Shown: positions 429-38,866, counted from the stretch's first letter. The stretch is 39,703 nucleotides of DNA from Candidatus Tayloriibacteriota bacterium (GCA_009694955.1 SIBZ01000004.1:1-39703); one strand, 5' to 3'. Program-made: numbers and translations. Notes: generated by a model not told the origin, from the sequence alone.

Positions 429-465
429 CTACTAACTACTTACTACGAGCTACTTTCTACTTACT
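429..465. repeat. Heptamer array, CTACnnn family
   Basis: ctactaa ctactta ctacgag ctacttt ctactta ct; contains the TAG stop of the HAD gene (457-459). Confidence 0.8.
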
Positions 466-1146
466 GATGTTATACACCACGTCCTTCCGTTCCACCACCA
501 CACGCCATTTATTGCGCTTCGCGTGGGCATACAGCTTCGCGTTCGGGTTAAAACAAATCGGCTCCGATACCAGCTCAAGGAACGGGATATCACTTTCGGT
601 ATCGCCTACTCCGACCGAGCCCTTGAGGGTAAGGTCCTCTTTCTCAACGGCACGCTTCACGACAAGCGCTTTGTTCAGCATAAAATGCAACTCGGTAATC
701 TCGCCGGTAAAACGGTCGGACGGACCTGTCTCGTACATCATCCCGTAGACCTTATCAAACCCAAGCCGTTTACAGAAATGGTCAAGGACACCCTTCGGTG
801 AATGTGAGACAGCGAGCAGAAAGAACCCTTTCTTCTTATACTCCTTTATCAAGTCACGTGTGAAGCGGTACACTCTATCTTTCTGCTCCGCGACGACTTC
901 TTCAGCGATGCGGGAGAATTCTTTGTACTCCACGCCTTTAATATTCGCCATAAAGACCTTCACAACCGCCATAATGTAGGCGTCGTAGTCACCTTTCCGG
1001 TCCAGCCACGCGAGCTTCTGGCGTGCGAAATCGGCGTTTGCGTTCTTGCTGAAAATCCCCTCTTCAATCATCCGGTCCACAATCTGGATAAGGAGCGAGG
1101 AACGGAAGATAGTTCCATCTATGTCGAAGATTGCTACCTTTTTCAT
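457..1146 (-). CDS. HAD-IB family phosphatase (SerB-like)
   Basis: Motif I FDIDGT, motif II VSHS, motif IV GDTESD, and NP. Confidence 0.9.
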   Translation of the reverse strand: MKKVAIFDIDGTIFRSSLLIQIVDRMIEEGIFSKNANADFARQKLAWLDRKGDYDAYIMAVVKVFMANIKGVEYKEFSRIAEEVVAEQKDRVYRFTRDLIKEYKKKGFFLLAVSHSPKGVLDHFCKRLGFDKVYGMMYETGPSDRFTGEITELHFMLNKALVVKRAVEKEDLTLKGSVGVGDTESDIPFLELVSEPICFNPNAKLYAHAKRNKWRVVVERKDVVYNISK

Positions 1147-1218
1147 ACACTCATAGTAGCATATTCGGAAACTTGACAGGAATGTACAAAAGATTCAGTA
1201 TATTTTCAGGATTGAACT

Positions 1219-1626
1219 ATGAAAACACCGAGACACTTCATCGTCTACGACACTGACGAGCCAACAAGTTATCTCAATATCCAGGTTATCGCCGATTGGC
1301 AAGAACGGAACGGAATCGCGCTTATCATCTGCCATACCCTAGAAAGTTTGAAGCGTATCCTACAGGATTTCCCGCACGACATCGTACTCGTGTCGCTCGC
1401 GAATCGCGAGCGTGCCGCGAGGGGCACTCTCTTTCTACGCAACCACGGCGTATCCTTCATCATCATACCGGAGAAGTTGTTTCTGGTTGATTACTTTGAT
1501 GTCGAAACGCTTGACCTTGTCCCGCCCGAACTGGTGTTCGGACGGAAACTGGTTGGGTCGAGGTTCCACCGTACCCACCATGTGGTCAACTGGGGACGAA
1601 CGGTGGATACTCTTTCCTCACGCTAG
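1219..1626 (+). CDS. Hypothetical protein
   Basis: 135-aa ATG ORF with TTGACA upstream (1173-1178) and a terminator immediately downstream. Confidence 0.6.
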   Translation: MKTPRHFIVYDTDEPTSYLNIQVIADWQERNGIALIICHTLESLKRILQDFPHDIVLVSLANRERAARGTLFLRNHGVSFIIIPEKLFLVDYFDVETLDLVPPELVFGRKLVGSRFHRTHHVVNWGRTVDTLSSR

Positions 1627-1631
1627 GCAAA

Positions 1632-1670
1632 CGGCGCTCCGACAGTTTTGTCGCGAGCGCCGCCTTTTTT
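1632..1670 (+). terminator. Intrinsic terminator between convergent genes
   Basis: cggcgctc-cgaca gttt tgtcg-gagcgccg hairpin followed by a T6 tract. Confidence 0.75.
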
Positions 1671-1689
1671 CTCACAATCCTTGTGGAAA

Positions 1690-2745
1690 TTACAGCTTGA
1701 TGATTTTCTCCCAAGGCAATCCCTTCTTGCCGAAGTGGCCATAAGCGGCAGTCGCTTGATACCACGGTTTCCGTAAATCAAGCCGTTCAATAATCGCAAG
1801 CGGACGGAAGTCAAAATGCTTTTTCACGAGTGACGCAAGACTCTTCCCTTTCTCGTCAATCGCGTGGACCATAAGGGGATCAATATGGCCAATCGCGTAG
1901 GCAACCGAGACAAGACACTCTTTCGCATATCCGTTCGCTACGATATTCTTCGCCACGAACCGGCACATATACGCGGCGGAACGGTCTACCTTGGTGAGGT
2001 CCTTTCCTGAGAACGCCCCTCCCCCGTGGCAGATAAGTCCGCCGTAGGTGTCTACCATAATTTTGCGCCCCGTGAGTCCCGCGTCCGCCTCAAATCCTCC
2101 CTGTACGAAATTCCCCGTCGGATTTACGAGCACTTCCACTCCTTTGAGTGAACCGATAATCGGAGCGATAATTTTTTTCGTCACTGTCTCCGTCACTTCG
2201 TCGTGGCCGACGCTCTTGTCATGCTGAGTAGAGACAAGCGCGGTTGCAATTTTGTTATTCAGAATCGTAATTTGCGTTTTACCGTCTGGCTTCAGCCATT
2301 TGATTTCCTTCTTCTCTCGCGCTTCCTGAAGTCTTCGTGCCATCTTGTGCACTAATACAACACCAGTCGGCAAATATTCCGGAGTTTCCTTCGTGGCGAA
2401 ACCATACATAATACCTTGGTCACCCGCGCCTCCCGTATTCACACCCTGCGCGATGTCCGGTGACTGCTCTACGATAAAGACCTGGATATCCAAAGGTTTG
2501 GTATAGCCGATGCTCCGGTATACAGCCGCGGCTATTTTCTTATAGTCTACCTTAGCGTTAGTGGTAACTTCCCCACCAAGAACGAGATGTCCGTGGCTTC
2601 CGAAGGTTTCCACTGCGACACGGCTCATCGGGTCTTGACGCATGCACTCGTCTAAAATAGCATCCGAAATCTGGTCACAGACTTTATCCGGATGGCCATT
2701 CGTAACGCTTTCTACGGTATATGTTCTTCTATCGTGTATGTGCAT
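1690..2745 (-). CDS. metK: S-adenosylmethionine synthetase
   Basis: ESVTNGHPDKVCDQISDA, GAGDQG, DAGLTGRKI, GGGAFSGKD and AAYGHFG signatures. Confidence 0.97.
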   Translation of the reverse strand: MHIHDRRTYTVESVTNGHPDKVCDQISDAILDECMRQDPMSRVAVETFGSHGHLVLGGEVTTNAKVDYKKIAAAVYRSIGYTKPLDIQVFIVEQSPDIAQGVNTGGAGDQGIMYGFATKETPEYLPTGVVLVHKMARRLQEAREKKEIKWLKPDGKTQITILNNKIATALVSTQHDKSVGHDEVTETVTKKIIAPIIGSLKGVEVLVNPTGNFVQGGFEADAGLTGRKIMVDTYGGLICHGGGAFSGKDLTKVDRSAAYMCRFVAKNIVANGYAKECLVSVAYAIGHIDPLMVHAIDEKGKSLASLVKKHFDFRPLAIIERLDLRKPWYQATAAYGHFGKKGLPWEKIIKL

Positions 2746-2757
2746 CGATTTGAAATT

Positions 2758-2841
2758 AATTTTTAATTTTCTAATTTTTTAGTTTCTAAATAATTTCCGG
2801 GTGTCTTTTGTTTAAAAACTGGAAATTGGTTATTAGAAATT
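2758..2841. repeat. Inverted heptamer cassette (AATTTyy / rrAAATT arms)
   Basis: Left arm aattttt aattttct aatttttt agtttct aaat aatttcc; right arm aaaaact ggaaatt ggttatt agaaatt. Confidence 0.6.
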
Positions 2842-2868
2842 AAAAAACTTTCCCGTAGAGGAAAGATT
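2842..2868 (-). terminator. Terminator of the riboswitch expression platform
   Basis: Minus strand CUUUCC-UCUACG-GGAAAG-UUUUUU directly after the aptamer. Confidence 0.8.
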
Positions 2869-2872
2869 TTTG

Positions 2873-2975
2873 GCTAGTATCCTTCCCCGTTCGGGGCTGG
2901 GTTGGCACAGCACTCTTTCGAGCCAGTTGCCGGAGGGTCATTGAGCCAGTACTCTATCCTCACTCTTGATATCGC
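2873..2975 (-). ncRNA. SAM-I (S-box) riboswitch aptamer
   Basis: Minus strand UAUCAAGAG..GAGG.AUAGAGUACUGGCUCAAUGACCCUCC.GGCAAC..GUGCC.AACCCAG.CCCCG-AA-CGGGG.AAGGAUA gives P1-P4, kink-turn region and a possible CUGG/CCAG pairing; lies upstream of metK. Confidence 0.92.
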
Positions 2976-2993
2976 TATGAAGTTGTAACCGAC

Positions 2994-3022
2994 ATACTAC
3001 ACAACTCGCGCCCGACGCGCAA
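2994..3022 (-). promoter_or_regulatory. Sigma70-type promoter for the riboswitch-metK transcript
   Basis: Minus strand TTGCGC-17 nt-TAGTAT just upstream of the aptamer. Confidence 0.6.
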
Positions 3023-3160
3023 TGTTATTGGGATGTTAATTACACATCAAAGACTTGATTCCTGAAAGGTTTGGAGTAGGATACCCCAAGCTGTGTTGAC
3101 GAATTGGGAATGCTTCCCAGAATGTTCTTTACAGCGACAAACTCCCGCATTTCAAGACCT

Positions 3161-3541
3161 ATGAAAGAACATATCGGTTCCGGTCTCCTATCCGCGATTC
3201 TCATTCTTTTCGCCCTGCAGTCACGGGCCGAGGAAACAGTTTTTATCCCCACCCCAGGAATGACTCCCGGACAAACGGTCCACTTCGAATTCCGGCCCGC
3301 GTCGCCGGACGTACAAGTTGTCGGCATTATCGTGGTCTATAAGCACGTTGCTCCAAAAAAAGAGGGGCAGGCTCCACAGAAAGACCCGCCGGTGATTCCA
3401 CTGAGAAGGGTCCAGGAGACGGCGTTCTGGGAAAAACCGTCGGGAAAAATCGGTCCATTTGAGCTGAAGCTCGGCGAGTCGGCATCAAAGGGAACATTCG
3501 CCGGTGCGCCGGTGCTCGCCGTGCTCAGCCGAAAGTTCTAG
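3161..3541 (+). CDS. Hypothetical secreted protein
   Basis: ATG at 3161; signal-peptide-like MKEHIGSGLLSAILILFALQSRA; terminator downstream. Confidence 0.6.
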   Translation: MKEHIGSGLLSAILILFALQSRAEETVFIPTPGMTPGQTVHFEFRPASPDVQVVGIIVVYKHVAPKKEGQAPQKDPPVIPLRRVQETAFWEKPSGKIGPFELKLGESASKGTFAGAPVLAVLSRKF

Positions 3542-3572
3542 CTCTTGGAAATGCTATGAACGAGAAGAATAG

Positions 3573-3605
3573 TGCCACGCGGACAGTACGTCTGCGTGGC
3601 ATTTC
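3573..3605. terminator. Hairpin terminator between convergent genes
   Basis: tgccacgcggac-agtac-gtctgcgtggca followed by tttt. Confidence 0.7.
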
Positions 3606-3606
3606 T

Positions 3607-4176
3607 CTATATCTCTATTTTAATTTTGACCGCCCCCGCTCGTAGTACTTTGGGCGAATCGCCGAGAAACGATACAAGTGTGGAGGGTTTCCCTCTCAAC
3701 CTCCCCGCACTAACATAGACATCTATCTTTTCCCCAAAATACTTTTTCGCCTCCGCGATGGTCTCTGCGGGTTTCTCCCCTTCCGGGTTCGCGCTCGGCG
3801 CGAGAAGCGGGCCGGTTTTTTTTAGCAATGTTTGAAGTTTTTTTGACTTCGGTAAACGAAACGCGAGTGTGTTCGTTCCTAAATGCAGATACGAAAACTT
3901 TTTTGCTTTACACGGGAAAATGACACTTACCTTTCCCGGCCAGACCGTCTTGAGAAAACGCGAAACAGCCGGAGTCGGCGTAATGGCGAATCCGGCCAGT
4001 TCCGTAATGGACGAAATGAGCACAATAAAAGGTTTTTCCGGAGTTTTCCGGCGCAGCGCGTAGAGCTTCTTCACCGCTTTCTTATCCAGCGCCCTCACGA
4101 CGACACCGTAGATGGTGTCGGTTGGGATTACTCCAATGCCCCCTTTTTTCAGAAGATTGATAAGAGTAGAAGGCAT
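3607..4176 (-). CDS. tsaC: L-threonylcarbamoyladenylate synthase (TsaC/Sua5/YrdC)
   Basis: PTDTIYG, WPG, PLLAPSANPEG, PSTLV and LRAGA motifs; ATG at 4176 preferred because the upstream GTG lies in a repeat. Confidence 0.92.
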   Translation of the reverse strand: MPSTLINLLKKGGIGVIPTDTIYGVVVRALDKKAVKKLYALRRKTPEKPFIVLISSITELAGFAITPTPAVSRFLKTVWPGKVSVIFPCKAKKFSYLHLGTNTLAFRLPKSKKLQTLLKKTGPLLAPSANPEGEKPAETIAEAKKYFGEKIDVYVSAGRLRGKPSTLVSFLGDSPKVLRAGAVKIKIEI

Positions 4177-4188
4177 GACAGAGTAATC

Positions 4189-4256
4189 AATCACCAATAT
4201 CCAACGAAAGAACGTTTCTTTTTGGTTATTGGTGTTTGGTTATTGGTGATTAGTTA
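4189..4256. repeat. Inverted heptamer cassette, CCAAT/TTGG family, copy 1
   Basis: aatcacc aatatcc aa - spacer cgaaagaacgtttctttt - ttggtta ttggtgt ttggtta ttggtga ttagtta. Confidence 0.85.
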
Positions 4257-4792
4257 GCCTTAAACGTCGCCTCCTCTCCCGCGACAATGACATCTTCGCG
4301 ATAATTGAATGCGGCGGCCCCGACATCCTTGTACACAACAACTTTGTATGTACTGCCCGCGACAGTCGGGCGAAGAAGTTCAATGGTTGTCTTCTGTGCG
4401 TTGCCGACAAACACCTTCTGAGCGCCGAGAATGTTACCAAGCACACCGCCTTTTACCTCACGCACCGCTACCCACAGGATGTCTTTTGCATCGATGCTCG
4501 CGATTTCCACGCGACCGCCAGCAGGTTGGTCGGTGACACTAAGCCCCTTGGTGGTCACTGCCCCCGTCGCAGGGGTTTCGGATGCTTCTTTCTTTTCCGT
4601 CGGCGCGACAACCCCCTCTTTCTCTTTGATAACTTCTCCTACCGCTGCTTCTTCTTTGGACGTTGAAATATTCTTTACCACATCTCCCGTCCGGCGCGCT
4701 TGCCAGAAGACGCCCGTCGCGAACCCGACAAGGAGTCCGATAATGAGAGCGGTGATAATCTTTCCCGATGCGTTACTTTGAGTGGGTTCCAT
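4250..4792 (-). CDS. Membrane-anchored protein with low-complexity linker and beta-rich C-terminal domain (possibly DUF7282-like)
   Basis: N-terminal TM helix, then VTDQPAG...WVAVRE...GNILGA pattern. Confidence 0.7.
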   Translation of the reverse strand: MEPTQSNASGKIITALIIGLLVGFATGVFWQARRTGDVVKNISTSKEEAAVGEVIKEKEGVVAPTEKKEASETPATGAVTTKGLSVTDQPAGGRVEIASIDAKDILWVAVREVKGGVLGNILGAQKVFVGNAQKTTIELLRPTVAGSTYKVVVYKDVGAAAFNYREDVIVAGEEATFKAN

Positions 4793-4799
4793 GGTACCG

Positions 4800-4830
4800 A
4801 TGAATTATGAGGTATGAATAATGAATTAAG
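4800..4830. repeat. Heptamer array, ATGAnnn family
   Basis: atgaatt atgaggt atgaata atgaatt aag. Confidence 0.7.
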
Positions 4831-4908
4831 CTCTAGTGGCTGTATTGTAATCGGTAGTACGTCCTTGAACATCTTTACTTAAAAGGTCTCCTATGTCATA
4901 AATAGGAG

Positions 4909-5652
4909 ATGAACATACTGCGAACACGATTTAAAAAAGACATTGTGTGCGAATTTATTCCTCCCAATCGACCTTCAAACAAGGTGATTATTTTCTGTAA
5001 AGGAATGCCTGGGCTTCCTCGGTTCCCCCAGGTGTTGGAATTCTGGGCGAAAAAAGGCTACTGGGTATTTTTCCCCCGTTATCGTGGCACATGGGAAAGC
5101 GACGGCGAGTTTCTGAAGGAATCTCCCGAAAAGGACATTCTTGATGTCATCGACGAACTCCCAAAAGGATTTACCGACCTCTGGTCCGGTCGGTCCTATA
5201 AGCTATCAGCTAAAAGCTATAAGCTATTCATATTCGGCGGCAGTTTCGGCGGGCCGGCAGCAATACTCTGTTCCCGAGATCCACGTGTGACGAAAGCGGT
5301 CGCCTTCGCGCCAGTTATAGATTGGGAAGCGCCATCCGAGGAAGAACCGATGGATAAACTTGGTGCATTTATTCCGCAAGGGTTTGGACAGAGCTACCGG
5401 TTCTCACAGAAAAATTGGGACCGACTCAGCCACAACGAGTTTTACAGTCCGCTCAAAGAGTCCGATACGATTGATGGCAAAAAACTTCTCATCTTCCACG
5501 CTAAGGATGACGAATCGTGCCACTATCCCTCGACCAAAACATTCGCCGAAAAAACCGGCGCGAAACTCATCACGCTTCGCACCGGTGGCCACTTTGGCAT
5601 CTCAAAATCCATCGAACCGAGATTCTATAAAGAAATCAAGAAATTCCTCTAG
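4909..5652 (+). CDS. Alpha/beta hydrolase (prolyl-oligopeptidase-like)
   Basis: YRGTWES, nucleophile elbow GGSFGG, FHAKDD and GGH. Confidence 0.88.
   Translation: MNILRTRFKKDIVCEFIPPNRPSNKVIIFCKGMPGLPRFPQVLEFWAKKGYWVFFPRYRGTWESDGEFLKESPEKDILDVIDELPKGFTDLWSGRSYKLSAKSYKLFIFGGSFGGPAAILCSRDPRVTKAVAFAPVIDWEAPSEEEPMDKLGAFIPQGFGQSYRFSQKNWDRLSHNEFYSPLKESDTIDGKKLLIFHAKDDESCHYPSTKTFAEKTGAKLITLRTGGHFGISKSIEPRFYKEIKKFL
5196..5226. repeat. In-frame heptamer array (AGCTnnn family) inside the hydrolase
   Basis: ctataag ctatcag ctaaaag ctataag cta, read as SYKLSAKSYKL. Confidence 0.8.
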
Positions 5653-5653
5653 T

Positions 5654-5702
5654 AGTAATTTTAGCAAAGTAACCACGGCCGTGGTTACTTTGCTAAATTA
5701 CT
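5654..5702. repeat. Perfect 38-bp palindrome with no loop (REP-like or bidirectional terminator)
   Basis: tttagcaaagtaaccacgg|ccgtggttactttgctaaa at 5660-5697; contains the truB TAG. Confidence 0.85.
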
Positions 5703-6409
5703 TCTGCATCTTCGATTTTGAATTCTCCTATTCGAGTACGGCGAAGCCCCGCGAGCGTGGCGGGAACTCCAAGACGCCTTCCGAACTCTTCGGCGAGGGA
5801 GCGGATGTAGGTCCCGCTTGTGACGTCGAAGCGGACAGACACCACCACCCCGCCTCCGGCACCCCTCCTCAACTGAGGAGGGGGTGAAGAGACACCGAGA
5901 AACTCCACCGCGGTTATCTCCATCACCTTACTTGGAGTATCTACCACTTCACCGCGCCGTGCTTTTTTATACAGTGCTTCCCCTCCCCGTTTGATAGCGG
6001 AATACGCCGGAACCGGAAGCTCAAGCTTTCCTATCATTGTCTGCAGTATCTTTTCTATTTCTTCGTTTGAAAATTTCTTATCTTGAAAATTAATTGAAAA
6101 TTGGGAATTGGAAATTGGTACTTCTTGGCCAGTGATATCTCCCGTATCCGTTTTTACTCCGAGTAGTATTTCCGCCTCATATGTTTTATCGAGCTTCAAA
6201 AACTCGTGAAGTTTTTTGGTTCCGTCACCAACTCCGATAATCATAAGCCCCGTCGCCATCGGGTCCAGCGTCCCCGCATGCCCCATCTTGCGTATATTCA
6301 GCTTCTTCCTCAGTATGCGAATACAGTCAAAGGAAGTAATTCCCTTCGGCTTATCAATGAGTAGAATATGTTCGGGAAGCACAGTAGGAGTATGGTACAC
6401 TTTTAACAT
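5693..6409 (-). CDS. truB: tRNA pseudouridine(55) synthase
   Basis: DKPKGITS, GHAGTLDPMATG, PAYSAIK, GTYIRSLA and LRRTRIG; ATG at 6409. Confidence 0.96.
   Translation of the reverse strand: MLKVYHTPTVLPEHILLIDKPKGITSFDCIRILRKKLNIRKMGHAGTLDPMATGLMIIGVGDGTKKLHEFLKLDKTYEAEILLGVKTDTGDITGQEVPISNSQFSINFQDKKFSNEEIEKILQTMIGKLELPVPAYSAIKRGGEALYKKARRGEVVDTPSKVMEITAVEFLGVSSPPPQLRRGAGGGVVVSVRFDVTSGTYIRSLAEEFGRRLGVPATLAGLRRTRIGEFKIEDAEVI
5844..5884. repeat. In-frame GC-rich double-hairpin element in truB
   Basis: accaccccgcctccggcacccctcctcaactgaggaggggg, read as PPPQLRRGAGGGVV. Confidence 0.75.
6067..6120. repeat. In-frame heptamer array (TTGrrAA family) in truB
   Basis: ttgaaaa...ttgaaaa ttaa ttgaaaa ttgggaa ttggaaa ttggta, read as PISNSQFSINFQDKKFSN. 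Confidence 0.75.
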
Positions 6410-6415
6410 ATCATT

Positions 6416-6492
6416 AATCACCAATAACCAATATCCAATCACCAAGGAAGAAATGATTCTTTTTGGGTATTGATAATTGGTGCTTGGTTATT
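6416..6492. repeat. Inverted heptamer cassette, CCAAT/TTGG family, copy 2
   Basis: aatcacc aataacc aatatcc aatcacc aa - spacer ggaagaaatgattctttt - ttgggta ttgataa ttggtgc ttggtta tt. Confidence 0.88.
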
Positions 6493-6497
6493 TTACT

Positions 6498-6752
6498 ATG
6501 TCCCACATAGACCGCCTCGAATTTAAAAAAGCGTTGTACAAACTCCGCGAAAGCGGTTCGTTTTCCAATCATGAAATAGACGAGATAGAGAACGTCTTTT
6601 ACGGTAGCTTACACGAAAGCAATATGTCGGCAGGTATCAGCTCCTCTGAACTCGAAAAAGGCATCGAGTACCTCACACGACATCCCGAAAATCACCATCT
6701 TTCTCACGATGAAATCAAAAAATTGGAGGAGGTGCTGAAGCACTATCTCTAA
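6498..6752 (+). CDS. Small hypothetical helical protein (84 aa)
   Basis: ATG at 6498; internal repeat FSNHEIDEIE / LSHDEIKKLE; protein-like composition. Confidence 0.7.
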   Translation: MSHIDRLEFKKALYKLRESGSFSNHEIDEIENVFYGSLHESNMSAGISSSELEKGIEYLTRHPENHHLSHDEIKKLEEVLKHYL

Positions 6753-6755
6753 GAA

Positions 6756-6816
6756 AATAACCGAAAAATCACTGATTCTCTTTTGGTTGGTGGTTGGTGA
6801 TGGGTGTTTGATTATT
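6756..6816. repeat. CCAAT/TTGG family cassette, copy 3 (degenerate), forming a protein C-terminus
   Basis: aataacc...tgattctctttt ggttggtgg ttggtga tgggtgt ttgatta tt; read on the minus strand as NNQTPITNHQPKENQ*. Confidence 0.7.
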
Positions 6817-7164
6817 TCCCCGCAGTGTCCGTACTGCCCGCACTGCCTGCTTCAAGTGGCGGACGGTAAAAAAGCCGACCACACCGAGTACGACGAGCAA
6901 GAGCTTCATCTCAAGTTCAGTGGAGGAAAATGCCGACAGAGAGAAGTTCGAAAGGTTTCCCCCGCTCTCCGCGACCGAAAGGTTTCTCCATACGTCTTGA
7001 ACGGACACAAACAATGTGGCAATAAAGGCGACCACGACAATCACGAGACAGTCAAACGCGAACGGAGAAATATTGCGGATCATAAACAAGACGTAGATGC
7101 GTCGCATCACGCGCTGTCTGAGCGTCTTTCTCGTACTTGGTTGTATGATACTTTCGTCTTGCAT
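6769..7164 (-). CDS. Membrane protein, candidate anti-sigma factor
   Basis: Two hydrophobic segments; starts 1 nt after the ECF sigma stop. Confidence 0.65.
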   Translation of the reverse strand: MQDESIIQPSTRKTLRQRVMRRIYVLFMIRNISPFAFDCLVIVVVAFIATLFVSVQDVWRNLSVAESGGNLSNFSLSAFSSTELEMKLLLVVLGVVGFFTVRHLKQAVRAVRTLRGNNQTPITNHQPKENQ

Positions 7165-7165
7165 A

Positions 7166-7780
7166 TTATGGATGGCTCAGCGGACTTCTCTCTTTTCGCT
7201 TCTCCATTATTTCTTTCAATTCTTGTTTCGCTCTATGTACCCGCGCGCGAACCGCGCCTTCCGATATCTGCAATATACGGGCGACATCCGCGTGAGGCTT
7301 TCCTTCGATAAAGTGGAGACGCATCGGTTCCGCCAACCCCCCTGAAAGTTCCTTCAGCAATGATTCCACCTCGTCGCGGTTAAGTTCTTGCTCACGGCGC
7401 TCTCCCGCTCCTCGGTCGGCCACCAGTTCCTGAAATTCGGGGTCGAGGTCGGCAAGAAAATTTCCTTCACCTTTCGTTTTCTTGTAGGCGGTGTAGCAGG
7501 TATTGACGAGGATGCGGTATCCCCACGACTTGAATCCGGCACCCGGCTGTGGCCGGAATCTACGGGCGTTCTTGTAAATCTTCACAAACGCATCCTGCAC
7601 GGCGTCCTGTGCCGCCTCTTTGGTTCCTAAAATGTAGTATGCCTTGCGCAAAAACGCTTCTTCATACCGTTCAAGAAGCTTTTCAAAAAGGCGTGGGTTG
7701 CTAAATGAGCGCTCCAAGAGCTCTTCATCCGGCATACTCGCGATAAGGTCCCGTTTTTCGTTTGATTCGTCTAACAGCAT
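7166..7780 (-). CDS. ECF (sigma-24-type) RNA polymerase sigma factor
   Basis: Region 2 AQDAVQDAFVKIY...FKSWGYRILVN; region 4 VARILQISEGAVRARVHRAK. Confidence 0.92.
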   Translation of the reverse strand: MLLDESNEKRDLIASMPDEELLERSFSNPRLFEKLLERYEEAFLRKAYYILGTKEAAQDAVQDAFVKIYKNARRFRPQPGAGFKSWGYRILVNTCYTAYKKTKGEGNFLADLDPEFQELVADRGAGERREQELNRDEVESLLKELSGGLAEPMRLHFIEGKPHADVARILQISEGAVRARVHRAKQELKEIMEKRKERSPLSHP

Positions 7781-8054
7781 GCAAAAAAGGCTTGCGTTCT
7801 CGTGCCTTACCCCAAATAGTACTCACCTTTTCCTATTACTGCAACCGTATTTATATCATCGGCGTTACGCCGATGATATAAATGCACCCCCCCCGCATTG
7901 AATGCGGAGTCCTTGATTTTTGGCGCTTGTCCACAGTAGGCTCTTTGAGCGATGTATACAATGTGCGATACTAGTGGTAACTCGCCTGAACTTTGCTACG
8001 GCAGAGAGAGGGTAAAAAGGTCGAAGACCAGTTCATCATCTCACTTATACATAC

Positions 8055-8228
8055 ATGCGAACAAACTCTTCCGGAGGATTGCGCCATCTCATTCCGATTC
8101 TCATCATCCTCCTTGCGGTTTCTTTCCTGCTCCAGTCTATGAATATGCTTTCGGCGCCGGTCGTTGCCGTCGTCTGGCCGATACTTCTCGGACTCATCGG
8201 ACTCGTCAAGCTAGAAGAAGCACGCTGA
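8055..8228 (+). CDS. Small two-TM protein (57 aa), LiaF/DUF5668-like; absent from the ORF track
   Basis: MRTNSSGGLRHLIPILIILLAVSFLLQSMNMLSAPVVAVVWPILLGLIGLVKLEEAR*; ends at a terminator. Confidence 0.75.
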   Translation: MRTNSSGGLRHLIPILIILLAVSFLLQSMNMLSAPVVAVVWPILLGLIGLVKLEEAR

Positions 8229-8278
8229 TTCTCAAAAGAAAAACATCCGCCAACTGGCGGATGTTTTTCTTTTGAGAA
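8229..8278. terminator. Bidirectional terminator, 24-bp perfect inverted repeat
   Basis: ttctcaaaagaaaaacatccgcca-ac-tggcggatgtttttcttttgagaa. Confidence 0.85.
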
Positions 8279-8285
8279 GTTCGTG

Positions 8286-8606: not shown

Positions 8607-8694
8607 GTATTGAGAAATACTATCCTTATAACTGTCTCCCGACCTTGCCGCGCCATAGTTCGCTTAGGGCGAACGACGGAGGGCTTCTCAATAC
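8607..8694 (-). promoter_or_regulatory. Structured 5' leader of the RRM gene
   Basis: Perfect 10-bp pairing of 8607-8616 with 8685-8694 abutting the ATG; inner hairpin gttcgc/gcgaac. Confidence 0.55.
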
Positions 8695-8734
8695 GGCTGC
8701 TTACGCTTCCTCCTTGAGAAAAAAGACAACATCA

Positions 8735-11272: not shown

Positions 11273-11274
11273 AC

Positions 11275-11350
11275 AGTTGTAAGTTGTAAGATTAAAGATT
11301 ACAGTAAGTGTGCCGCTTTACTTACATCTTAAATCATACATCTTTAATCT
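11275..11350. repeat. Inverted heptamer cassette, AGATTTA/TCTTAAA family, copy 1
   Basis: agttgta agttgta agattaa agattac ag - spacer - cttacat cttaaat catacat ctttaat ct; ends directly at the DsbA ATG. Confidence 0.85.
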
Positions 11351-13078: not shown

Positions 13079-13108
13079 CTACTAACTACTATCTACCTAC
13101 TACTAACT
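13079..13108. repeat. Heptamer array, CTACnnn family
   Basis: ctactaa ctactat ctaccta ctactaa ct; encodes the last residues LVVGR* of the helicase. Confidence 0.8.
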
Positions 13109-16055: not shown

Positions 16056-16085
16056 AGCTTATAGCTGTTAGCTGATAGCTCTTAG
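16056..16085. repeat. Heptamer array, AGCTnnn family
   Basis: agcttat agctgtt agctgat agctctt ag. Confidence 0.8.
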
Positions 16086-17778: not shown

Positions 17779-17801
17779 CTAAAAGCTAGAAGCTATAAGC
17801 T
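17779..17801. repeat. Heptamer array, AGCTnnn family
   Basis: ctaaaag ctagaag ctataag ct, just after the rpoD stop. Confidence 0.7.
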
Positions 17802-22973: not shown

Positions 22974-23006
22974 ACAAAACTCCCCGCAAACGGCGGGGAG
23001 TTTTGT
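22974..23006 (-). terminator. rpoC terminator
   Basis: acaaaactccccgc-aaacg-gcggggagttttgt. Confidence 0.85.
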
Positions 23007-23042
23007 TATTCAGTCATTCAGTTATTGGTTATCCGTTATTCA
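23005..23042. repeat. 7/8-mer array, GTTATTC family
   Basis: gttattca gtcattca gttattg gttatcc gttattca; includes the rpoC TAA. Confidence 0.65.
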
Positions 23043-26726: not shown

Positions 26727-26814
26727 AGTTGAAAGATTTAAGTTGTAAGATTTAAGGAGGACACCTCTTTTCTTAATTCTTTACGTTAATCTTGAATCTT
26801 TAATCTTAAATCTA
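26727..26814. repeat. Inverted heptamer cassette, AGATTTA/TCTTAAA family, copy 2 (rpoB-rpoC spacer)
   Basis: agttgaa agattta agttgta agattta ag - gaggacacctc - tcttaat...tcttgaa tctttaa tcttaaa tct. Confidence 0.88.
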
Positions 26815-32173: not shown

Positions 32174-32860
32174 TTATTTTCTGCGCTTCAGTTTCCACTC
32201 GTTGATTTTTGCCTGATGACCGGAGAGAAGGATTTTAGGGACGCGGAATTTCTTGCCTTTGTAGGAAAAGATTTCAGGGCGGGTGTAGACATCGGGGCTG
32301 GCAACACGACTTTCCTCGCGCGAGTTGAAATCGCCAAGCACGCCTTCCACTTGGCGCGCGATTACGTCAATCATCAGCATTGCGGGGAGTTCCCCGCCGG
32401 TGAGTACGAACGGACCCACGGATACCTCCTCAACCTTGAATGCCTTCTTGACTCGTGCATCTATTCCCTCATACCGCCCGCAGATAATGATGATGTCTTT
32501 CTGTTTCGCGTACTTCACTCCACTTTCGTTGGTGAACTGCTTCCCGCTCGGGCTTAGCCAGACAAGAGGAGCTTTTAGCTTATAGCTTATAGCTTTTAGC
32601 TTTTTCGCCATTCTCACATTTTTAAGAATGTCAGAATATGCTTTTTCGATGGCGCGGATAACTGGTTCGGCTTGGATAACCATGCCGGGACCGCCGCCGT
32701 ACGGAGCGCGGTCAATTCGTTTCCATTTATTTTCCGCAAAATCGCGCGGGTTGTAGAACTTCACCTGTATCTTTTTGTCCTCAATGGCGCGCTTCAAAAT
32801 CGACTCCCCGAGATAGGAGTCAAATGCGTGCGGGAATAAGGTTATGATATGGAAATTCAT
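32174..32860 (-). CDS. trmD: tRNA (guanine-N1)-methyltransferase
   Basis: PYGGGPGMV, LSPSG, CGRYEGIDAR, VLTGGELPA and LLSGH; ATG at 32860. Confidence 0.97.
   Translation of the reverse strand: MNFHIITLFPHAFDSYLGESILKRAIEDKKIQVKFYNPRDFAENKWKRIDRAPYGGGPGMVIQAEPVIRAIEKAYSDILKNVRMAKKLKAISYKLKAPLVWLSPSGKQFTNESGVKYAKQKDIIIICGRYEGIDARVKKAFKVEEVSVGPFVLTGGELPAMLMIDVIARQVEGVLGDFNSREESRVASPDVYTRPEIFSYKGKKFRVPKILLSGHQAKINEWKLKRRK
32570..32637. repeat. Composite in-frame insert in trmD: heptamer array plus palindrome
   Basis: agctttt agcttat agcttat agctttt agctttt (32570-32604) and attctcacatttttaagaatgtcagaat (32610-32637), read as SDILKNVRMAKKLKAISYKLKA. Confidence 0.8.
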
Positions 32861-32899
32861 GTATAGCAAAATACAACAAAATTGTAATAATGGCAATAC

Positions 32900-32942: not shown

Positions 32943-32977
32943 AAAGCTAAAAGCTAAAAGCTAGAACCTAAAAGCTA
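32943..32977. repeat. Heptamer array, AGCTnnn family
   Basis: aaagcta aaagcta aaagcta gaaccta aaagcta; last unit carries the khpA TAG. Confidence 0.85.
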
Positions 32978-33292
32978 TATCTTGAGGTCTTCCATCGCCT
33001 CGTCCACGCTCTTCGTGGTTGAGCGTTCCGGGCGGGTTCCCCCTTCCGGCTCGTTGATTTTGAGATTTACGCGCGCATTGTTCTTCATACCGACGACTCG
33101 GAGGAGCGTGCGGATTGCCTTTGCAGTGTTGCCTGAGCGACCGATAACTTTACCCATATCAACCGGGCTAATCGAGAGTGTCAGAAGCACGCCCATTTCG
33201 TCGACGGTTCGGTTGATTTTGACATCATCCGGAGCGTCTACAAGCGCCTTCACTACGTATTCGAGAAACGCGACATCGCTTTCTTGTGCCAT
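32975..33292 (-). CDS. khpA: KH-domain RNA-binding protein KhpA (YlqC)
   Basis: DMGKVIGRSGNTAKAIRTLL; lies directly after rpsP. Confidence 0.92.
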   Translation of the reverse strand: MAQESDVAFLEYVVKALVDAPDDVKINRTVDEMGVLLTLSISPVDMGKVIGRSGNTAKAIRTLLRVVGMKNNARVNLKINEPEGGTRPERSTTKSVDEAMEDLKI

Positions 33293-36447: not shown

Positions 36448-36479
36448 AAAAGCCACGCGGGTAACCGCGAGGCTTTTTT
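36448..36479. terminator. Bidirectional terminator
   Basis: aaaagccacgcgg-gtaa-ccgcgaggctttttt. Confidence 0.75.
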
Positions 36480-36486
36480 GTTTCCT

Positions 36487-36516
36487 CTGTCATTCCAACG
36501 AAAGCTGGAATCCAGA
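36487..36516. repeat. GTCATTCC...GGAATCCAG palindromic element, copy 2
   Basis: ctgtcattccaacgaaagctggaatccaga. Confidence 0.7.
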
Positions 36517-36549
36517 GTTTCAGAACTGAATCCTCACTTTAGTCTACGA

Positions 36550-38829
36550 CTACTTCGCTACCGCCACCGCTTCGTCAAAGGCAATCGAGAGGAGCTTGGA
36601 CACCCCGCTCTTGTCCATCGTGACCCCGTAAATCACACCAGCGCGGGACATCGTTTCGCGATTATGCGTAATCAAAATCAGCTGGGAATATTTGGACAGG
36701 TTCTCAATCATATCGCCGTACTTCTTTGAGTTCGCTTCGTCCAGCGCCGCGTCAGTTTCGTCAAGAATGATGAACGGCGGGGGCTTCACCTGTGACATCG
36801 CGAAGAGAAGCGCGATGGAGGTGAGCGCGCGCTCGCCTCCGGAAAGCATCATAAGCGCTTTGATTTTCTTCCTCGGAAGATTCACCTCAATATCAATGCC
36901 TGTTTCCTGCTCGGTATCCTCGGATGCCGCTACCGCAGCCGCTTCCCCGCCATCGAGAAGGTCATCGACCTCCCGCCGGATTTTCTTTTCCGGTTTCGCG
37001 ATTGCGAGCTTCGCCGAACCACCACCGAACATAAGCGAAAAGTAGTTCTGGAACTCCGCGTTTATCTTCTCGATACCTCCGCGAAACTCTTCATCCAGCT
37101 TTTGCTCAAGCTCGATAATGAGATTCCGGAGCGTCTCGGCACTTTGTTCAAGGTCGGTGATTTCCCGCGCAAGAAACTGGTCGCGCTCGGTTGCCTCCTG
37201 AAACTCTTTCAGCACCTCCGCTCCGCTTCCTCCGCCCGCATCCTCGATGCGGATTTTCAGTTTTTCCACTTTCCGTCGCCGTTCTTCTTGCAGTGCTCGG
37301 TCCTCGAGTGTCATTGCTTGAGGGTTTAGGGTTTCGCCCTTCTCATCTTTCAATTCCACCTTTTCATATTCCAAAATCTCCCTACCAATAAGTAGGACGC
37401 CTTCGGTGAGTTCGCGTTTGAAATCCCCTTCCAAATGCTCGAGTTCGTGCGCTCGTACACGGAGCGCGTTTAACGCGCCGTGTAGTTCGTTCTGACGTGC
37501 CATAATGCGGAAGACTTCTTTTTCCGCGTCCCGGCTTGAATCTTTTTCCTTGTCTATTTCCGTCCGGAGCGCGTACTCTTCGTGTTGTGCATTCTTTTCG
37601 GCTTCCCGCACCTCGCGGAGTTTTTGTTCGACTTCTTTCTTCTTCTCAGCCAAAGATTCGATTTCTTTCGCCACGTCCTCTGCTCCCTGGTCCTTTTTCC
37701 TCCGGTGGCGTTCGAGAAACGTATGCATCGCTTCCTTGATGCGCCCGATGGTGACGATGAGGATACCCGCGTCCCGCTCATCTTCATCGACGGACACGGA
37801 ATCGATTTGCCGGACCAGACCTTCGACTTCGGAAAGCGGGATAACGACGCTGTCTGACTCCATTGTCCCGCGGATTTTTTGCAAACGCTGTGCTCCTGCG
37901 ACTTCGCCCTCAAGCCGGCCTACTTCGCGCGAAAGCGACTCGCGTTCTTTCCGAAGGCCGTTTAGTTTCTCTTCGATGGCGATAATCGCCTTCGTCTTTT
38001 CGTCTTTCCCATGCGTTTCTTCAAGAATTTTCTTGGACGCGATAAGTCTGTCGTTCAGTTCGGCGAGCTCTTGCTTGGGCTCACGCTCTTCTTCCGCTAT
38101 CTTCTCTTTCGAAACAGCGATGTAGGCGTGTTCCCGCTTCAGGTATTCGCCGTATAGCGCACGGAGCTCTTCCTTCAGTTGTTTGGTCTTTTCGATTTTC
38201 TCAACCTGTTTTTTGAGAAAGGAAATATGCGGGGCAATCTCACGGCGAAGTGATGCCACCTGCTTCATATTTTCGTCGGTTTTCTCGAGCTTCTTTTCCG
38301 ACTCCTCCCGCTTCCATTGGTAAATCTTGAGACCGAGCGCGTCTTCAATCATCTCCCGTCGTTCCCGCATAGTGGCGTTAAGGATTCTGTCTGCCTCGCC
38401 CTGCGAAATGATGTGGTGCCCCGATGAGCCGATATGCGCTCCGGCGAGGAGCTCCACGATGTCGCGGAGGCGCACCGGCGAGCCGTTCACGAGATACTCA
38501 CTTGATGCATCTCGGAAGATGACGCGTTCAATAACCACTTCATCGACATCAAGATTGAGCAAACGCTTTCGGTTGTCGAATACGAGCTTCACCGACGCGC
38601 GGTTGGAGCGCCCCATTTCGGGAGAGCCGTTCCAAATGAGGTCTTCGGTGCGCTTCCCTCGCATACTCTTAATGGACTGTTCTCCGAGCACGAAACGAAA
38701 CGCTTCGGCGGTGTTGCTCTTCCCGCTTCCGTTCGGACCGACGATGGACGTAATAGGCGTGTTGAAAGACAGTTCGGTCTTCTTGGCGAAGGACTTAAAG
38801 CCGGTGAGTTCCAATGATTTTAAGTACAT
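36550..38829 (-). CDS. smc: Short SMC-family ATPase (759 aa)
   Basis: GFKSFA, GPNGSGKSN, Q-loop ISQG, LSGGE and LDETDAALD, with coiled coil in between. Confidence 0.9.
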   Translation of the reverse strand: MYLKSLELTGFKSFAKKTELSFNTPITSIVGPNGSGKSNTAEAFRFVLGEQSIKSMRGKRTEDLIWNGSPEMGRSNRASVKLVFDNRKRLLNLDVDEVVIERVIFRDASSEYLVNGSPVRLRDIVELLAGAHIGSSGHHIISQGEADRILNATMRERREMIEDALGLKIYQWKREESEKKLEKTDENMKQVASLRREIAPHISFLKKQVEKIEKTKQLKEELRALYGEYLKREHAYIAVSKEKIAEEEREPKQELAELNDRLIASKKILEETHGKDEKTKAIIAIEEKLNGLRKERESLSREVGRLEGEVAGAQRLQKIRGTMESDSVVIPLSEVEGLVRQIDSVSVDEDERDAGILIVTIGRIKEAMHTFLERHRRKKDQGAEDVAKEIESLAEKKKEVEQKLREVREAEKNAQHEEYALRTEIDKEKDSSRDAEKEVFRIMARQNELHGALNALRVRAHELEHLEGDFKRELTEGVLLIGREILEYEKVELKDEKGETLNPQAMTLEDRALQEERRRKVEKLKIRIEDAGGGSGAEVLKEFQEATERDQFLAREITDLEQSAETLRNLIIELEQKLDEEFRGGIEKINAEFQNYFSLMFGGGSAKLAIAKPEKKIRREVDDLLDGGEAAAVAASEDTEQETGIDIEVNLPRKKIKALMMLSGGERALTSIALLFAMSQVKPPPFIILDETDAALDEANSKKYGDMIENLSKYSQLILITHNRETMSRAGVIYGVTMDKSGVSKLLSIAFDEAVAVAK

Positions 38830-38835
38830 AAAATC

Positions 38836-38866
38836 AGATTTACGAAGTATGATTTAAGATTTACGA
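38836..38866. repeat. Heptamer array, AGATTTA family
   Basis: agattta cgaagta tgattta agattta cga, just upstream of the smc ATG. Confidence 0.7.

Follow-up and report, generated by a model that had tools for sequence, protein, structure and literature searches.

The heptamer arrays dispersed through the 39,703-nucleotide stretch of DNA analysed here (the window) are confirmed as a real feature of their genome, and they are probably ORF-less copies of IVS-like small palindromic elements whose complete copies carry a gene of the IVP family (PF05635/TIGR02436), encoding a four-helix-bundle protein. This reading draws on the periodicity and size mode of the arrays, their inverted pairing, their position at both flanks of IVP genes, the co-divergence of IVP protein and heptamer unit, the correlation of arrays with IVP genes across genomes, and the copies in rRNA genes and in frame within protein genes.

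Period-7 arrays in the host genome

The host genome, 868,699 bp in length and 88.6% complete, belongs to the Paceibacteria (CPR). TRF returned 40 rows for the window, of which 17 were of period 7 and 7 of period 14. Across the whole genome there were 173 rows of period 7 and 33 of period 14, against means of 14.8 and 2.2 in five dinucleotide shuffles. A recurrence test, in which one 4-mer had to be seen three times at a fixed lag, was scored separately in intergenic DNA and in crude ORFs. Genome-wide, intergenic DNA gave 116 recurrences at period 7, where 10 shuffles gave a mean of 1.9 and a maximum of 4, an excess of about 60-fold; the remaining periods from 4 to 15 gave 2 to 18. Within crude ORFs the count at period 7 was 48 against 17.7 in shuffles, and the same test found no enrichment there at periods 8, 10, 11 or 13. 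Self-matching segments were similarly concentrated at lags 7 (64) and 14 (53), with at most 6 at any other lag between 4 and 15.

The size of the arrays has a mode and does not simply decay: 48 of the 173 rows span 30-31 nt, and 47 have 4.3-4.4 copies. The units are diverse, with 87 canonical units among the 173 rows, and family-level similarity between arrays is found genome-wide. Multi-unit arrays that are identical to each other and have a common inner motif recur at several loci. The conserved inner motif of the AATTTTC family occurs at about 13 loci (22 strand-wise matches), and one copy of this family surrounds an IVP gene (C20:1252-1533).

The original prediction listed about 17 loci in the window, of which 14 are matched by a TRF row of period 7 or 14 that coincides with the module or lies within it: 429, 2758, 4189, 5196, 6067 (6092-6118), 6416, 6756 (6784-6810), 11275, 13079, 16056, 17779, 26727, 32570 and 32943. 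Among the other claimed loci, 23005 has period 8, and 4800 and 38836 lack a TRF row, are plain in the sequence and match IVP arms of relatives. Two partner arms, at 11323-11349 and 26786-26813, were missing from that list. The inventory (Table 1) comprises five two-armed modules and about twelve single or degenerate arms, all ORF-less; every copy lies in an mRNA spacer, a leader or an ORF, and none in an rRNA gene.

Table 1. Heptamer arrays in the window, with the IVP gene arms that they match (L numbers denote IVP loci)
Position	Strand	Array	Basis	Setting	IVP arm and score
429..465		single arm, CTAC/GTAG, 5 cores	TRF	covers HAD-hydrolase stop (457-1146, -); stops 6 nt short of DUF5654 gene start (148-423, -)	L141/L138, 22.5 (null max 11.5)
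2756..2847		paired module, AATTTTT family; arms 2756-2789 and 2833-2847	TRF; RNA fold z = -3.5	metK leader, between SAM riboswitch (2874-2975, -) and metK start (2745)	no match among 30 loci tested
4184..4256		paired module, AATCACC/GGTGATT (CCAAT) family	TRF; RNA fold z = -4.35	spacer from stop of gene 4250-4792 (-) to Sua5/YrdC gene	no match among 30 loci tested
4800..4827		single arm, ATGAATT family, 4 units	read in sequence; no TRF row at score >=30	ends 7 nt upstream of start of gene 4250-4792 (-)	L142, 18.5 (null max 12)
5196..5227	+	AGCT-family array, in frame as SYKLSAKSYKLF	TRF	within S9/S33-type peptidase gene 4909-5652 (+)	L140, 27.5
6057..6118	-	AATTTTC/ATTGAAA-family array, in frame	TRF	within truB (5693-6409, -)	L133 (host genome's own IVP gene), 16
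6416..6485		paired module, AATCACC family; arms 6416-6445 and 6463-6485	TRF; RNA fold z = -2.5	ends 6 nt upstream of truB ATG (6409)	
6756..6810		small degenerate module: one AATAACC unit, spacer, TGGTTGG units; weakest of the loci listed	TRF	overlaps 3' end of ORF 6769-7164 (-)	
11275..11349		paired module, AGATTTA/AGTTGTA family, 14-nt super-period	TRF; RNA fold z = -2.0	78-nt spacer from stop of gene 10697-11272 to DsbA-like gene start 11351 (+)	L156, 19.5 and 16.5
13079..13108		single arm, CTAC/GTAG family	TRF	covers stop of UvrD/PD-(D/E)XK helicase-nuclease gene (13089-16034, -)	L150/L141/L138, 20
16056..16085		single arm, AGCT family	TRF	divergent spacer, ~21 nt upstream of helicase gene start	L140, 22.5
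17779..17801		single arm, AGCT family	TRF	5 nt past sigma-70 gene stop (17806-19017, -)	L151/L140, 18
23005..23039		single arm, GTTATTC family, irregular 7-8 nt spacing	TRF period 8	at rpoC stop (23036-26722, -), adjoining terminator-like hairpin	L159, 23
26727..26813		paired module, AGATTTA/AGTTGTA family	TRF; RNA fold z = -0.7	89-nt rpoB-rpoC spacer; first arm from rpoB stop, second ending 5 nt before rpoC ATG	L156, 23 and 18
32570..32604	-	AGCT-family array, 5 units, in frame as KKLKAISYKLKA	TRF	within trmD (32174-32896, -)	L140, 24.5
32943..32977		single arm, AGCT family, 5 units; inverted relative to 32570-32604	TRF	overlaps KH-domain gene stop (32975-33292, -); upstream of terminator-like hairpin and trmD	L151/L137, 22
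38836..38863		single degenerate arm, AGATTTA family	read in sequence; no TRF row at score >=30	7 nt upstream of SMC gene start (36550-38829, -)	L156, 16 (null max 12)

Inverted arms and IVP genes

Of 181 arrays genome-wide, 71 are accompanied by an inverted partner at most 110 nt away, none has a direct partner, and shuffled flanks yielded no inverted partners; for the remaining 110 (about 60%) no partner arm is detectable. The host genome has three IVP genes, each situated between inverted arrays, and the three array families are different. Among the IVP loci examined in the genus, 29 of 31 have inverted array flanks scoring at least 18, a threshold above the peak of 16 reached in shuffles, and the same is true of only 12 of 778 control genes. 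IVP proteins that are at least 80% identical have a common unit family, even across different genomic contexts. The original prediction had mentioned, as unverified, similar arrays flanking 23S_rRNA_IVP/TIGR02436-like genes, which these loci bear out, and it had stated correctly that the window itself holds no such four-helix-bundle gene: no PF05635/TIGR02436 gene was found in it. Fifteen of the 20 window arrays match the arms of IVP genes elsewhere in the genus, and the five others, from the AATTTTT and CCAAT families, have no match among the 30 IVP loci tested of the 74 known.

The host IVP protein scores 127 bits against PF05635 (cut-off 33.8) and 124.7 bits against TIGR02436 (cut-off 24), and matches PDB entries 2gsc (E = 7e-24) and 2rld, each of which has five chains. 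The longer, gene-carrying elements contain the four-helix-bundle gene only, and neither TnpB nor RT was found in the host genome at its 88.6% completeness.

The density of arrays follows the presence of IVP genes across genomes. Period-7 loci number 31.7 per 100 kb at the median (6.7-55.5) in 13 IVP-bearing genomes and 3.3 (0-7.9) in 10 IVP-free ones. Over these 23 related genomes, density correlates with IVP genes per Mb (rho 0.81) and with raw IVP counts (rho 0.79), figures that overstate independence because the genomes are kin, and for which some genus-level samples took in IVP loci.

A complete element would comprise one arm of some 30 nt, built of about 4.3 heptamers with five cores, the TIGR02436/PF05635 (S23p/IVP) gene and the same heptamers inverted, and the heptamer families of the window arrays would have a cognate IVP-carrying element elsewhere in the genome or genus. 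The host genome has three IVP genes and more than ten heptamer families, so most arrays are without a cognate protein gene there. That the arrays are non-autonomous copies of a trans-acting system, as originally predicted, is the reading favoured by the arm matches, the array-flanked IVP genes and the density that tracks IVP number.

We infer that the IVP protein, as a homopentameric toroid, binds an arm in such a way that each subunit takes one heptamer, an arrangement that would account for the five-core size as well as the 7-nt period. Such binding would make IVP the factor acting in trans to maintain or spread the arrays. A strict ruler of one heptamer per subunit is a poor fit to some arms, whose periods are 8-9 nt.

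By analogy with known IVSs, paired arms in transcripts may be substrates of RNase III, a gene for which is present in the host genome. The five two-armed modules of the window have terminal inverted repeats of the kind that characterises an IVS (roughly 20-30 nt, able to form a stem), with pairing at the consensus level only. When 16 analysable pairs were paired unit by unit, the true inverted order gave a mean of 19.0, compared with 19.4 for the same order and 19.4 for random order. Folding of array-bearing spacers shows no advantage of the sense over the antisense strand and the RNA fold z-scores of the modules are modest (-0.7 to -4.4), so a selected RNA stem, and hence cutting by RNase III, is unproven for the mRNA copies.

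Sites of the arrays and competing explanations

In these compact genomes the copies appear to settle where extra sequence is tolerated, namely in operon spacers (from stop to start codon), leaders, permissive protein loops and rRNA helices. The 16S gene of genome G012 is interrupted after model position ~70 by an IVP gene with its arms, and in the host's own 23S gene the loop at LSU model position 583/584 contains a 102-nt hairpin that is ORF-less and has arms of tandem units. Tolerance in frame, which had been predicted, is seen in trmD, truB and the peptidase gene. The peptidase segment has orthologues of equal length and differing sequence and is therefore no length insertion; the truB array is a 9-residue insert that some orthologues are without; and the trmD site is variable among orthologues and adjoins a conserved in-frame palindrome. 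Filled and empty sites were compared and empty-site orthologues were found; in trmD no target-site duplication was evident by eye. The original prediction would have been abandoned had period 7 not exceeded other periods, had families shown no similarity genome-wide, or had empty sites been missing, and the opposite was found on all three points.

Solo copies of the AATTTTC family have terminal inverted repeats and an inner sequence in common with the gene-carrying element (the C20 IVP copy), as MITEs do. Unlike in MITEs, no recognised transposase is encoded by the longer elements, and no target-site duplication is evident in the trmD comparison. For the arrays generally, neither a mechanism of transposition nor a duplicated target was found, RNA evidence was likewise absent, and no RNA run contains the window.

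All eight same-genus loci have arrays or a long hairpin in the rpoB-rpoC spacer, with different unit sequences, and the units of one orthologous spacer are unrelated between species whose RpoB proteins are 83-93% identical. Fast replacement of copies would leave such different families at one orthologous site in sister species. In other families of the order, and in IVP-free members of the genus, the spacers are about 25-66 nt long and without paired arrays.

The placement of the arms would also suit host cis-regulatory platforms in leaders and spacers, bound by S1, Csp or CsrA-like proteins or acting in stop-start translational coupling, with the IVP link incidental. In co-directional spacers the distance from the upstream stop to the first arm, and from the end of its partner to the downstream start, is about 0-10 nt; by crude starts, an SD-like tetramer accompanies 3 of the 69 starts next to arrays and 85 of the 749 others; and stop trinucleotides at 7-nt spacing are commoner than in column-permuted controls. 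The TAACTGA repeats of Beggiatoaceae have the same placement, and the same candidate binders are proposed for them in PMC4679880. We consider this explanation unlikely. Tight placement next to stop and start is a trivial outcome when 75-100 nt are inserted into a spacer of about 25 nt, the same families occur in frame in the three protein genes and in rRNA genes, and the absence of a sense-strand folding bias, the unrelated units in one orthologous spacer and the relatives that cope with short spacers all argue against a regulatory role.

Ordinary long simple-sequence repeats, arising by local slippage with a polymerase-related preference for 7 nt, neutral and unrelated to any protein gene, are likewise an unlikely account. 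The many different units are compatible with slippage, as are the frequent fusion of an array's first unit with local sequence such as a stop codon and the different heptamer numbers of Coxiella strains (PMC4990558). Slippage is opposed by the size mode where decay would be expected, by inverted partners in the complete absence of direct ones, by identical multi-unit arrays with a common inner motif at several loci, by the arrays flanking 29 of the 31 IVP genes examined, and by the background level of period 7 in IVP-free genomes of the same genus despite common replication machinery.

Mobilisation as MITEs or REP-like sequences by the genome's HUH Y1 transposases (RAYT-like) is highly improbable, and the HUH candidate of the original prediction is not supported. 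In its favour, the host genome has two PF01797 genes and the CTAC/GTAG core may resemble the REP 5' tetranucleotide. REP/RAYT membership is rejected because the hairpin that flanks the Y1 gene at C14:11921-12634 is of another kind, GC-rich and REP-like without heptamers, and because array density is only weakly correlated with the number of Y1 genes (rho 0.36, n = 23), with G028 having four Y1 genes and no period-7 loci in 60 kb, and G031 and G047 being array-rich with no Y1 genes.

Comparison with known systems

As probable copies of IVS-like elements, the arrays invite comparison with the rRNA IVSs that contain an S23p ORF in Coxiella, Leptospira and others (PMC4990558), in which, likewise, inverted arms of some 28-30 nt enclose a PF05635/TIGR02436 ORF and tandem heptamers of variable number stand just upstream of it. 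According to the same source, the stem of the Coxiella 23S IVS is a 28-bp inverted repeat and RNase III excises the element, 3-4 tandem heptamers, differing in number from strain to strain, precede its S23p ORF, and the S23p protein of Xanthomonas is a homopentameric toroid (PMC4990558). Copies in rRNA genes are found in the present lineage as well. Unlike the rRNA IVSs, the elements described here exceed 100 copies per 0.87 Mb, most of them ORF-less, located in mRNA spacers, leaders and ORFs and falling into many heptamer families; their arms are whole arrays that pair only at the consensus level, and RNase III excision is here presumptive.

The heptamer repeats of cyanobacteria known as STRR were reportedly described by Mazel in 1990, and as first defined they have a cyanobacterial host. 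The present arrays resemble them in being tandem 7-nt units, mainly intergenic and exceeding other periods; the host is not cyanobacterial, its closest rpoB loci being in Parcubacteria/Paceibacterota MAGs and its rpoC unsplit. With STRR and the heptamer SSR excess of Xanthomonas and Nostoc (PMC4692102), the arrays have in common intergenic tandem heptamers of several families per genome, some inverted pairs, and same-site differences in length and sequence between close relatives. They differ in their CPR host, in being AT-rich and short, with a mode at five cores and no G-quadruplex formation, and in their link to a four-helix-bundle gene, of which the main text of PMC4692102 makes no mention.

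The TAACTGA repeats of marine Beggiatoaceae, as described in PMC4679880, also consist of 2-6 heptamers ending a few nt from start codons, with the RBS mostly absent; some overlap the ends of upstream ORFs or sit in ORFs, and they are found ahead of essential genes. Unlike the arrays here, they form a single heptamer family with inverted pairs in one of 170 sets, and that account identifies no associated gene (PMC4679880).

Avd, of the diversity-generating retroelements, belongs to the same four-helix-bundle superfamily as the IVP protein, which scores 26 bits against NF033474 (family cut-off 80). Unlike in Avd systems, no reverse transcriptase was found in the 88.6%-complete genome, nor a template/variable repeat pair. 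Small palindromes that are tolerated within conserved protein genes also include the Rickettsia palindromic elements and other in-frame repeats resembling MITEs. The elements described here differ from them in having heptamer arrays as arms and, in the complete form, a four-helix-bundle gene where those have a transposase or nothing.

Period-7 arrays in the window and genome

The window takes up the whole 39.7-kb contig C31 of a genome of 868,699 bp in 52 contigs, 88.6% complete, and carries housekeeping genes including rpoB, rpoC, rpoD, dnaG, hisS, metK, trmD, truB, rpsP, RNase R, SMC and others. The host is a CPR bacterium, since the public genomes nearest by rpoB locus are Parcubacteria/Paceibacterota MAGs and the genomes of relatives are near-complete at 0.5-1.0 Mb. 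It is not a cyanobacterium, because rpoC on the window is unsplit. Only 13.6% of the genome is intergenic DNA.

TRF returned 40 rows in the window, 17 of period 7 and 7 of period 14, and such rows fell at 14 of the 17 loci where the original prediction had placed heptamer arrays. At 23005 the period reported was 8, and the arrays at 4800 and 38836 stayed under the TRF threshold yet are visible in the sequence. An autocorrelation check had been suggested along with the loci, and period 7 did exceed both other periods and shuffled sequence. Between genes, a 4-mer recurred three times at a fixed lag 116 times for period 7 (mean 1.9 and maximum 4 in ten shuffles) and 2-18 times for other periods; within crude ORFs, the simple ORF calls of this analysis, the count was 48 against 17.7, with periods 8, 10, 11 and 13 at expectation. 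Across the whole genome there were 173 period-7 TRF rows against a mean of 14.8 in five dinucleotide shuffles, 33 period-14 rows against 2.2, and 64 and 53 self-match segments at lags 7 and 14, with at most 6 at other lags. Many arrays have a 14-nt super-period built from two alternating unit variants (Table). Among 80 rpoB loci of other Paceibacteria genera (L049-L128, for example L070, L071, L069 and L099), TRF likewise reports period 7 most often, with 49 rows against at most 33 at any other, and some of the families, AGCTTTT and ATTGAAA, are those of the window genome.

Merging of the TRF rows gave 181 arrays, each placed by its midpoint relative to the crude ORFs. Between ORFs lie 110 (84 co-directional, 17 divergent, 9 convergent), 65 lie in ORFs, 21 of these no more than 60 nt from an over-extended 5' end, and 6 lie at contig edges. 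The 173 rows reduce to 87 canonical units, the recurrent families being AAAATTG (13 rows), AAAAGCT (10), AACTACT (10) and AAATTAG (8). Array lengths are not geometric: 48 of the 173 rows measure 30-31 nt and 47 contain 4.3-4.4 copies, that is, four units and the core of a fifth. A reverse-complementary partner lies within 110 nt of 71 of the 181 arrays (local score at least 12), and for none of the 181 did a direct partner or a shuffled flank reach that score within the same distance. In co-directional spacers, where 46 of the 84 arrays have an inverted partner, the first arm starts about 0-10 nt past the upstream stop and the second ends about 0-10 nt ahead of the downstream start.

The AATTTTC/ATTGAAA family occupies about 13 genomic loci (22 strand-wise matches), which bears out the family-level similarity expected at the outset. 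Its multi-unit arms are nearly identical, and a conserved inner motif adjoins the left arm. Such likeness at so many loci suggests copying between sites, and points to a dispersed family that local slippage alone would not produce.

Table. Coordinates of arrays and associated features; positions are in the window unless a contig (C) of the source genome, G000, is named
Feature	Position	Strand	Remark
Two-armed module	2756-2847
Two-armed module	4184-4256
Two-armed module	6416-6485
Two-armed module	11275-11349		14-nt super-period
Two-armed module	26727-26813
Array	4221-4256		14-nt super-period
Array	16056-16085		14-nt super-period
Array	26727-26756		14-nt super-period
Peptidase array	5196-5227		in gene
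truB array	6057-6118		in frame
trmD array	32570-32604		in frame
trmD palindrome	~32605-32640	-	~24-28 nt, near-perfect
SAM riboswitch	2874-2975	-	metK leader
AT-rich two-armed array module	region 2746-2873		metK leader
23S rRNA gene	G000:C38:26306-29992	-	3,687 nt
Y1 (HUH) transposase-like gene	G000:C14:11921-12634	-
Y1 (HUH) transposase-like gene	G000:C27:6780-7043	-
Paralogue with flanking palindromes	G000:C6:49385-49984	+	~200 residues
Paralogue with flanking palindromes	G000:C46:26582-27199	+	~200 residues

The metK leader holds a SAM riboswitch whose 45.5 bits barely exceed the gathering score of 44.4. An array module separates the terminator-like hairpin of the riboswitch from the metK start codon and thus lies inside a regulated leader.

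Inverted arrays around four-helix-bundle (IVP) genes

The original prediction mentioned similar arrays flanking genes for four-helix-bundle proteins and noted that the window has no such gene. The window indeed lacks a PF05635 (23S_rRNA_IVP, or S23p) gene, and the three in the genome all lie elsewhere. This association was borne out in the genus, where inverted-complementary flanks scored 18-29 at 29 of the 31 IVP loci examined, against a mean of about 9 and a maximum of 16 in shuffles; the exceptions are L156 (score 7) and L158 (14). All three genes of the genome are flanked by inverted arrays, of three different families, and the one on C20 lies inside an AATTTTC-family element whose inner motif is common to the solo copies, which have no ORF. 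IVP genes were found in 17 of 21 genomes of the genus (74 matches, up to 10 per genome) and in one of 14 well-known control genomes, that of Bacteroides thetaiotaomicron. Their arms are arrays of about five units drawn from many unit families, one 5-25 nt upstream of the ATG and the other directly past the stop. As a control, such flanks were sought at 778 crude genes of the genome and found at 12; one is an IVP gene, and the rest include several that only happen to lie between a pair of solo elements or between operator-like palindromes.

Arms and proteins diverge together. IVP proteins at least 80% identical have a common unit family, even across differing genomic contexts, and more distant proteins have related or different units; at one syntenic site, IVP lineages of 66, 60 and 39% identity have different arms. 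Fifteen of 20 window arrays, from the CTAC, AGCT, AGATTTA, ATGA, GTTATTC and AATTGAA families, match a genus IVP arm (scores of 16-27.5, where null maxima do not exceed 14.5), and the five of the AATTTTT and CCAAT families have no arm match among the 30 IVP loci tested. The arrays form the arms of elements that carry an IVP gene when complete; the copies in the window are ORF-less.

Array density was compared in 23 genomes sampled over at least 30 kb each, with order-level stretches taken away from IVP genes and genus-level stretches partly including them. As these genomes are kin, the following values are descriptive and not probabilities: the median number of period-7 loci per 100 kb is 31.7 (6.7-55.5) in the 13 genomes with IVP genes and 3.3 (0-7.9), the level of other periods, in the 10 without, and the Spearman rho of period-7 density is 0.81 with IVP genes per Mb, 0.79 with raw IVP counts and 0.36 with Y1-transposase counts. 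The pattern for IVP genes is kept within the genus and in the order's other families.

Two copies lie in rRNA genes. In the related genome G012 an IVP gene with heptamer arms is found within the 16S gene, with SSU model positions 1 to about 70 before it and the remainder after. The 23S gene of the source genome is 3,687 nt long for 2,925 model positions. Its loop at position 583/584 of the model holds an ORF-less insert of 102 nt, the halves of which are inverted tandem-unit arms, and about 660 more inserted bases are present in the gene. The G012 16S insert and this 23S insert are classical intervening sequences (IVSs). They resemble that of Coxiella, for which PMC4990558 notes heptamers in one IVS, describing a 28-bp inverted-repeat stem in the 23S IVS with excision by RNase III, and 3-4 tandem heptamers, strain-variable in number, upstream of the S23p ORF. 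Xanthomonas S23p is cited there as a homopentameric toroid. The genome's IVP protein matches this Xanthomonas structure (PDB 2gsc, E = 7e-24) and 2rld, both of them five-chain entries, as well as TIGR02436.

Filled and empty sites among relatives

A comparison of orthologous loci for empty and filled sites had been proposed, and both states were found at trmD and truB. The trmD array reads KKLKAISYKLKA in frame; its site varies in length. In orthologues the site is taken up by different heptamer arrays or by a GC-rich palindromic insert of another type, and in five species only a basal in-frame palindrome is present. The truB array is an in-frame insert of nine residues that several orthologues lack. 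The peptidase segment is equal in length to that of its orthologues and different in sequence, so this array is not an insertion. At all eight same-genus loci (RpoB identity 83-93%) the rpoB-rpoC spacer holds arrays or a long hairpin with unrelated units, and the AGATTTA family of the window's spacer is common to L007 only. The spacer has just a short, one-armed, degenerate TTCGTA relic in IVP-free members of the genus, and is plain and about 25 nt long in three of three loci of the order's other families. Orthologous sites are thus found both filled and empty, and array turnover is fast.

The trmD palindrome lies directly upstream of the variable array site and is kept across the genus (same site in L014-L031), encoding S-x-I-L/P-K/R-N-V-G. 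Conserved genes of relatives also contain a second kind of small in-frame insert, GC-rich and palindromic, which is translated as ...LDSRLRGNDK... or ...SSPP.LRRG... and was found at L017, L022 and L023 (trmD), L038 and L041 (truB), and L248 and L251-L253 (peptidase). In some cases it occupies a site where other species have heptamer arrays.

Contigs from four DNA runs were compared with window positions 1-20000. Related-strain contigs break at or beside some arrays, chimeric joints connect arrays of the same family, and these contigs gave no clean evidence of array-length polymorphism over that stretch. No listed RNA run contained the window.

Proposed action of the IVP protein and other candidates

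We propose that an IVP pentamer would bind one arm with one heptamer per subunit, which would account for both period 7 and the five-core size mode. It would also act in trans, on the solo copies that belong to its family, and paired arms in RNA may be cut by RNase III, for which the genome has a gene. A selected long intercistronic hairpin coupling translation was also considered, and was dropped because the folding and unit-order tests were both null: sense and antisense strands of 56 array-bearing co-directional spacers showed no folding bias, and in 16 pairs the arms showed no register-specific compensation (inverted order 19.0, same order 19.4, random 19.4). Given this and the modest RNA fold z-scores (-0.7 to -4.4), inverted protein-binding platforms fit the mRNA copies better than a conserved hairpin. 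Some arms have periods of 8-9, which speaks against a rigid ruler.

More broadly, heptamer repeats of bacteria at large could have the S23p/IVP pentamer as their trans-acting partner. Its subunits would each read one heptamer in an arm of five cores, protein and heptamers would co-evolve, and the two together would form a minimal selfish element that reaches rRNA helices, operon spacers and protein loops by means other than a conventional transposase. We hold this extension to be possible but rather unlikely. If true, it would explain the period 7 of STRR-type repeats and the reports from cyanobacteria, Xanthomonas, Bacteroidetes, Beggiatoaceae and the Coxiella IVS. The gene family is present in three of the reported lineages: Xanthomonas (PDB 2gsc), Nostoc (alr0549, named four helix bundle protein) and Bacteroides thetaiotaomicron.

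Records of heptanucleotide repeats (STRRs and relatives) in bacteria go back decades, and we know of no explanation of their period and no partner protein. Likewise, the structures of S23p/IVP proteins are solved and, to our knowledge, their function is not known. The present genome joins the two physically, phylogenetically and by co-divergence, turning two puzzles into one testable hypothesis, a pentamer binding five heptamers, and so offers a proposal for both the function of the family and the origin of period-7 repeats. Separate papers already describe heptamer repeats beside start codons (PMC4679880), an excess of heptamer SSRs in Xanthomonas and Nostoc (PMC4692102) and IVSs with an S23p gene (PMC4990558). 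A full-text literature search found no paper on such arrays in CPR bacteria and none joining TIGR02436/S23p genes to genome-wide heptamer arrays, the search covering main texts; the supplementary tables of PMC4679880 and PMC4692102, which give the genes beside repeats, may include four-helix-bundle neighbours. New here are IVS-type elements outside rRNA that populate a whole streamlined genome. They are not peculiar to rRNA: in a streamlined CPR genome they can take over a large fraction of operon spacers and even lie in frame in essential genes. This bears on annotation in CPR genomes, with respect to start sites, spurious insertions and assembly breaks, and on the tolerance of selfish DNA by small genomes.

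Many arrays in co-directional spacers have a stop trinucleotide in each unit, closing three reading frames within 21 nt. Of 33 start-proximal arms, 14 show this on the sense strand and 19 on the antisense strand, against 7% of shuffles; in the comparison with column-permuted controls, periodic stops are enriched at 13 and 18 of 33 arms against 21%. They may be selected or a by-product of AT-rich units; stop codons as the cause of period 7 were dropped, being present on both strands and absent from some families. Depletion of SD sequences at array-adjacent starts was set aside, the difference being weak and the start calls crude.

The elements are accompanied by no transposase, reverse transcriptase or TnpB, and neither TnpB (PF07282) nor reverse transcriptase (PF00078) was found in the 88.6%-complete genome. 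HUH proteins had been named as candidates, and two Y1 genes (~238 residues) are present. Y1 was rejected as mobiliser for its different flanks and its weak correlation with array density: the GC-rich, REP-like hairpin on either side of the C14 gene bears no relation to the heptamers and suggests a distinct system of the RAYT/REP type. An identical perfect palindrome of 20-24 nt flanks the C6 and C46 paralogues on both sides, and these palindromes resemble the operators of transcription factors that control their own expression.
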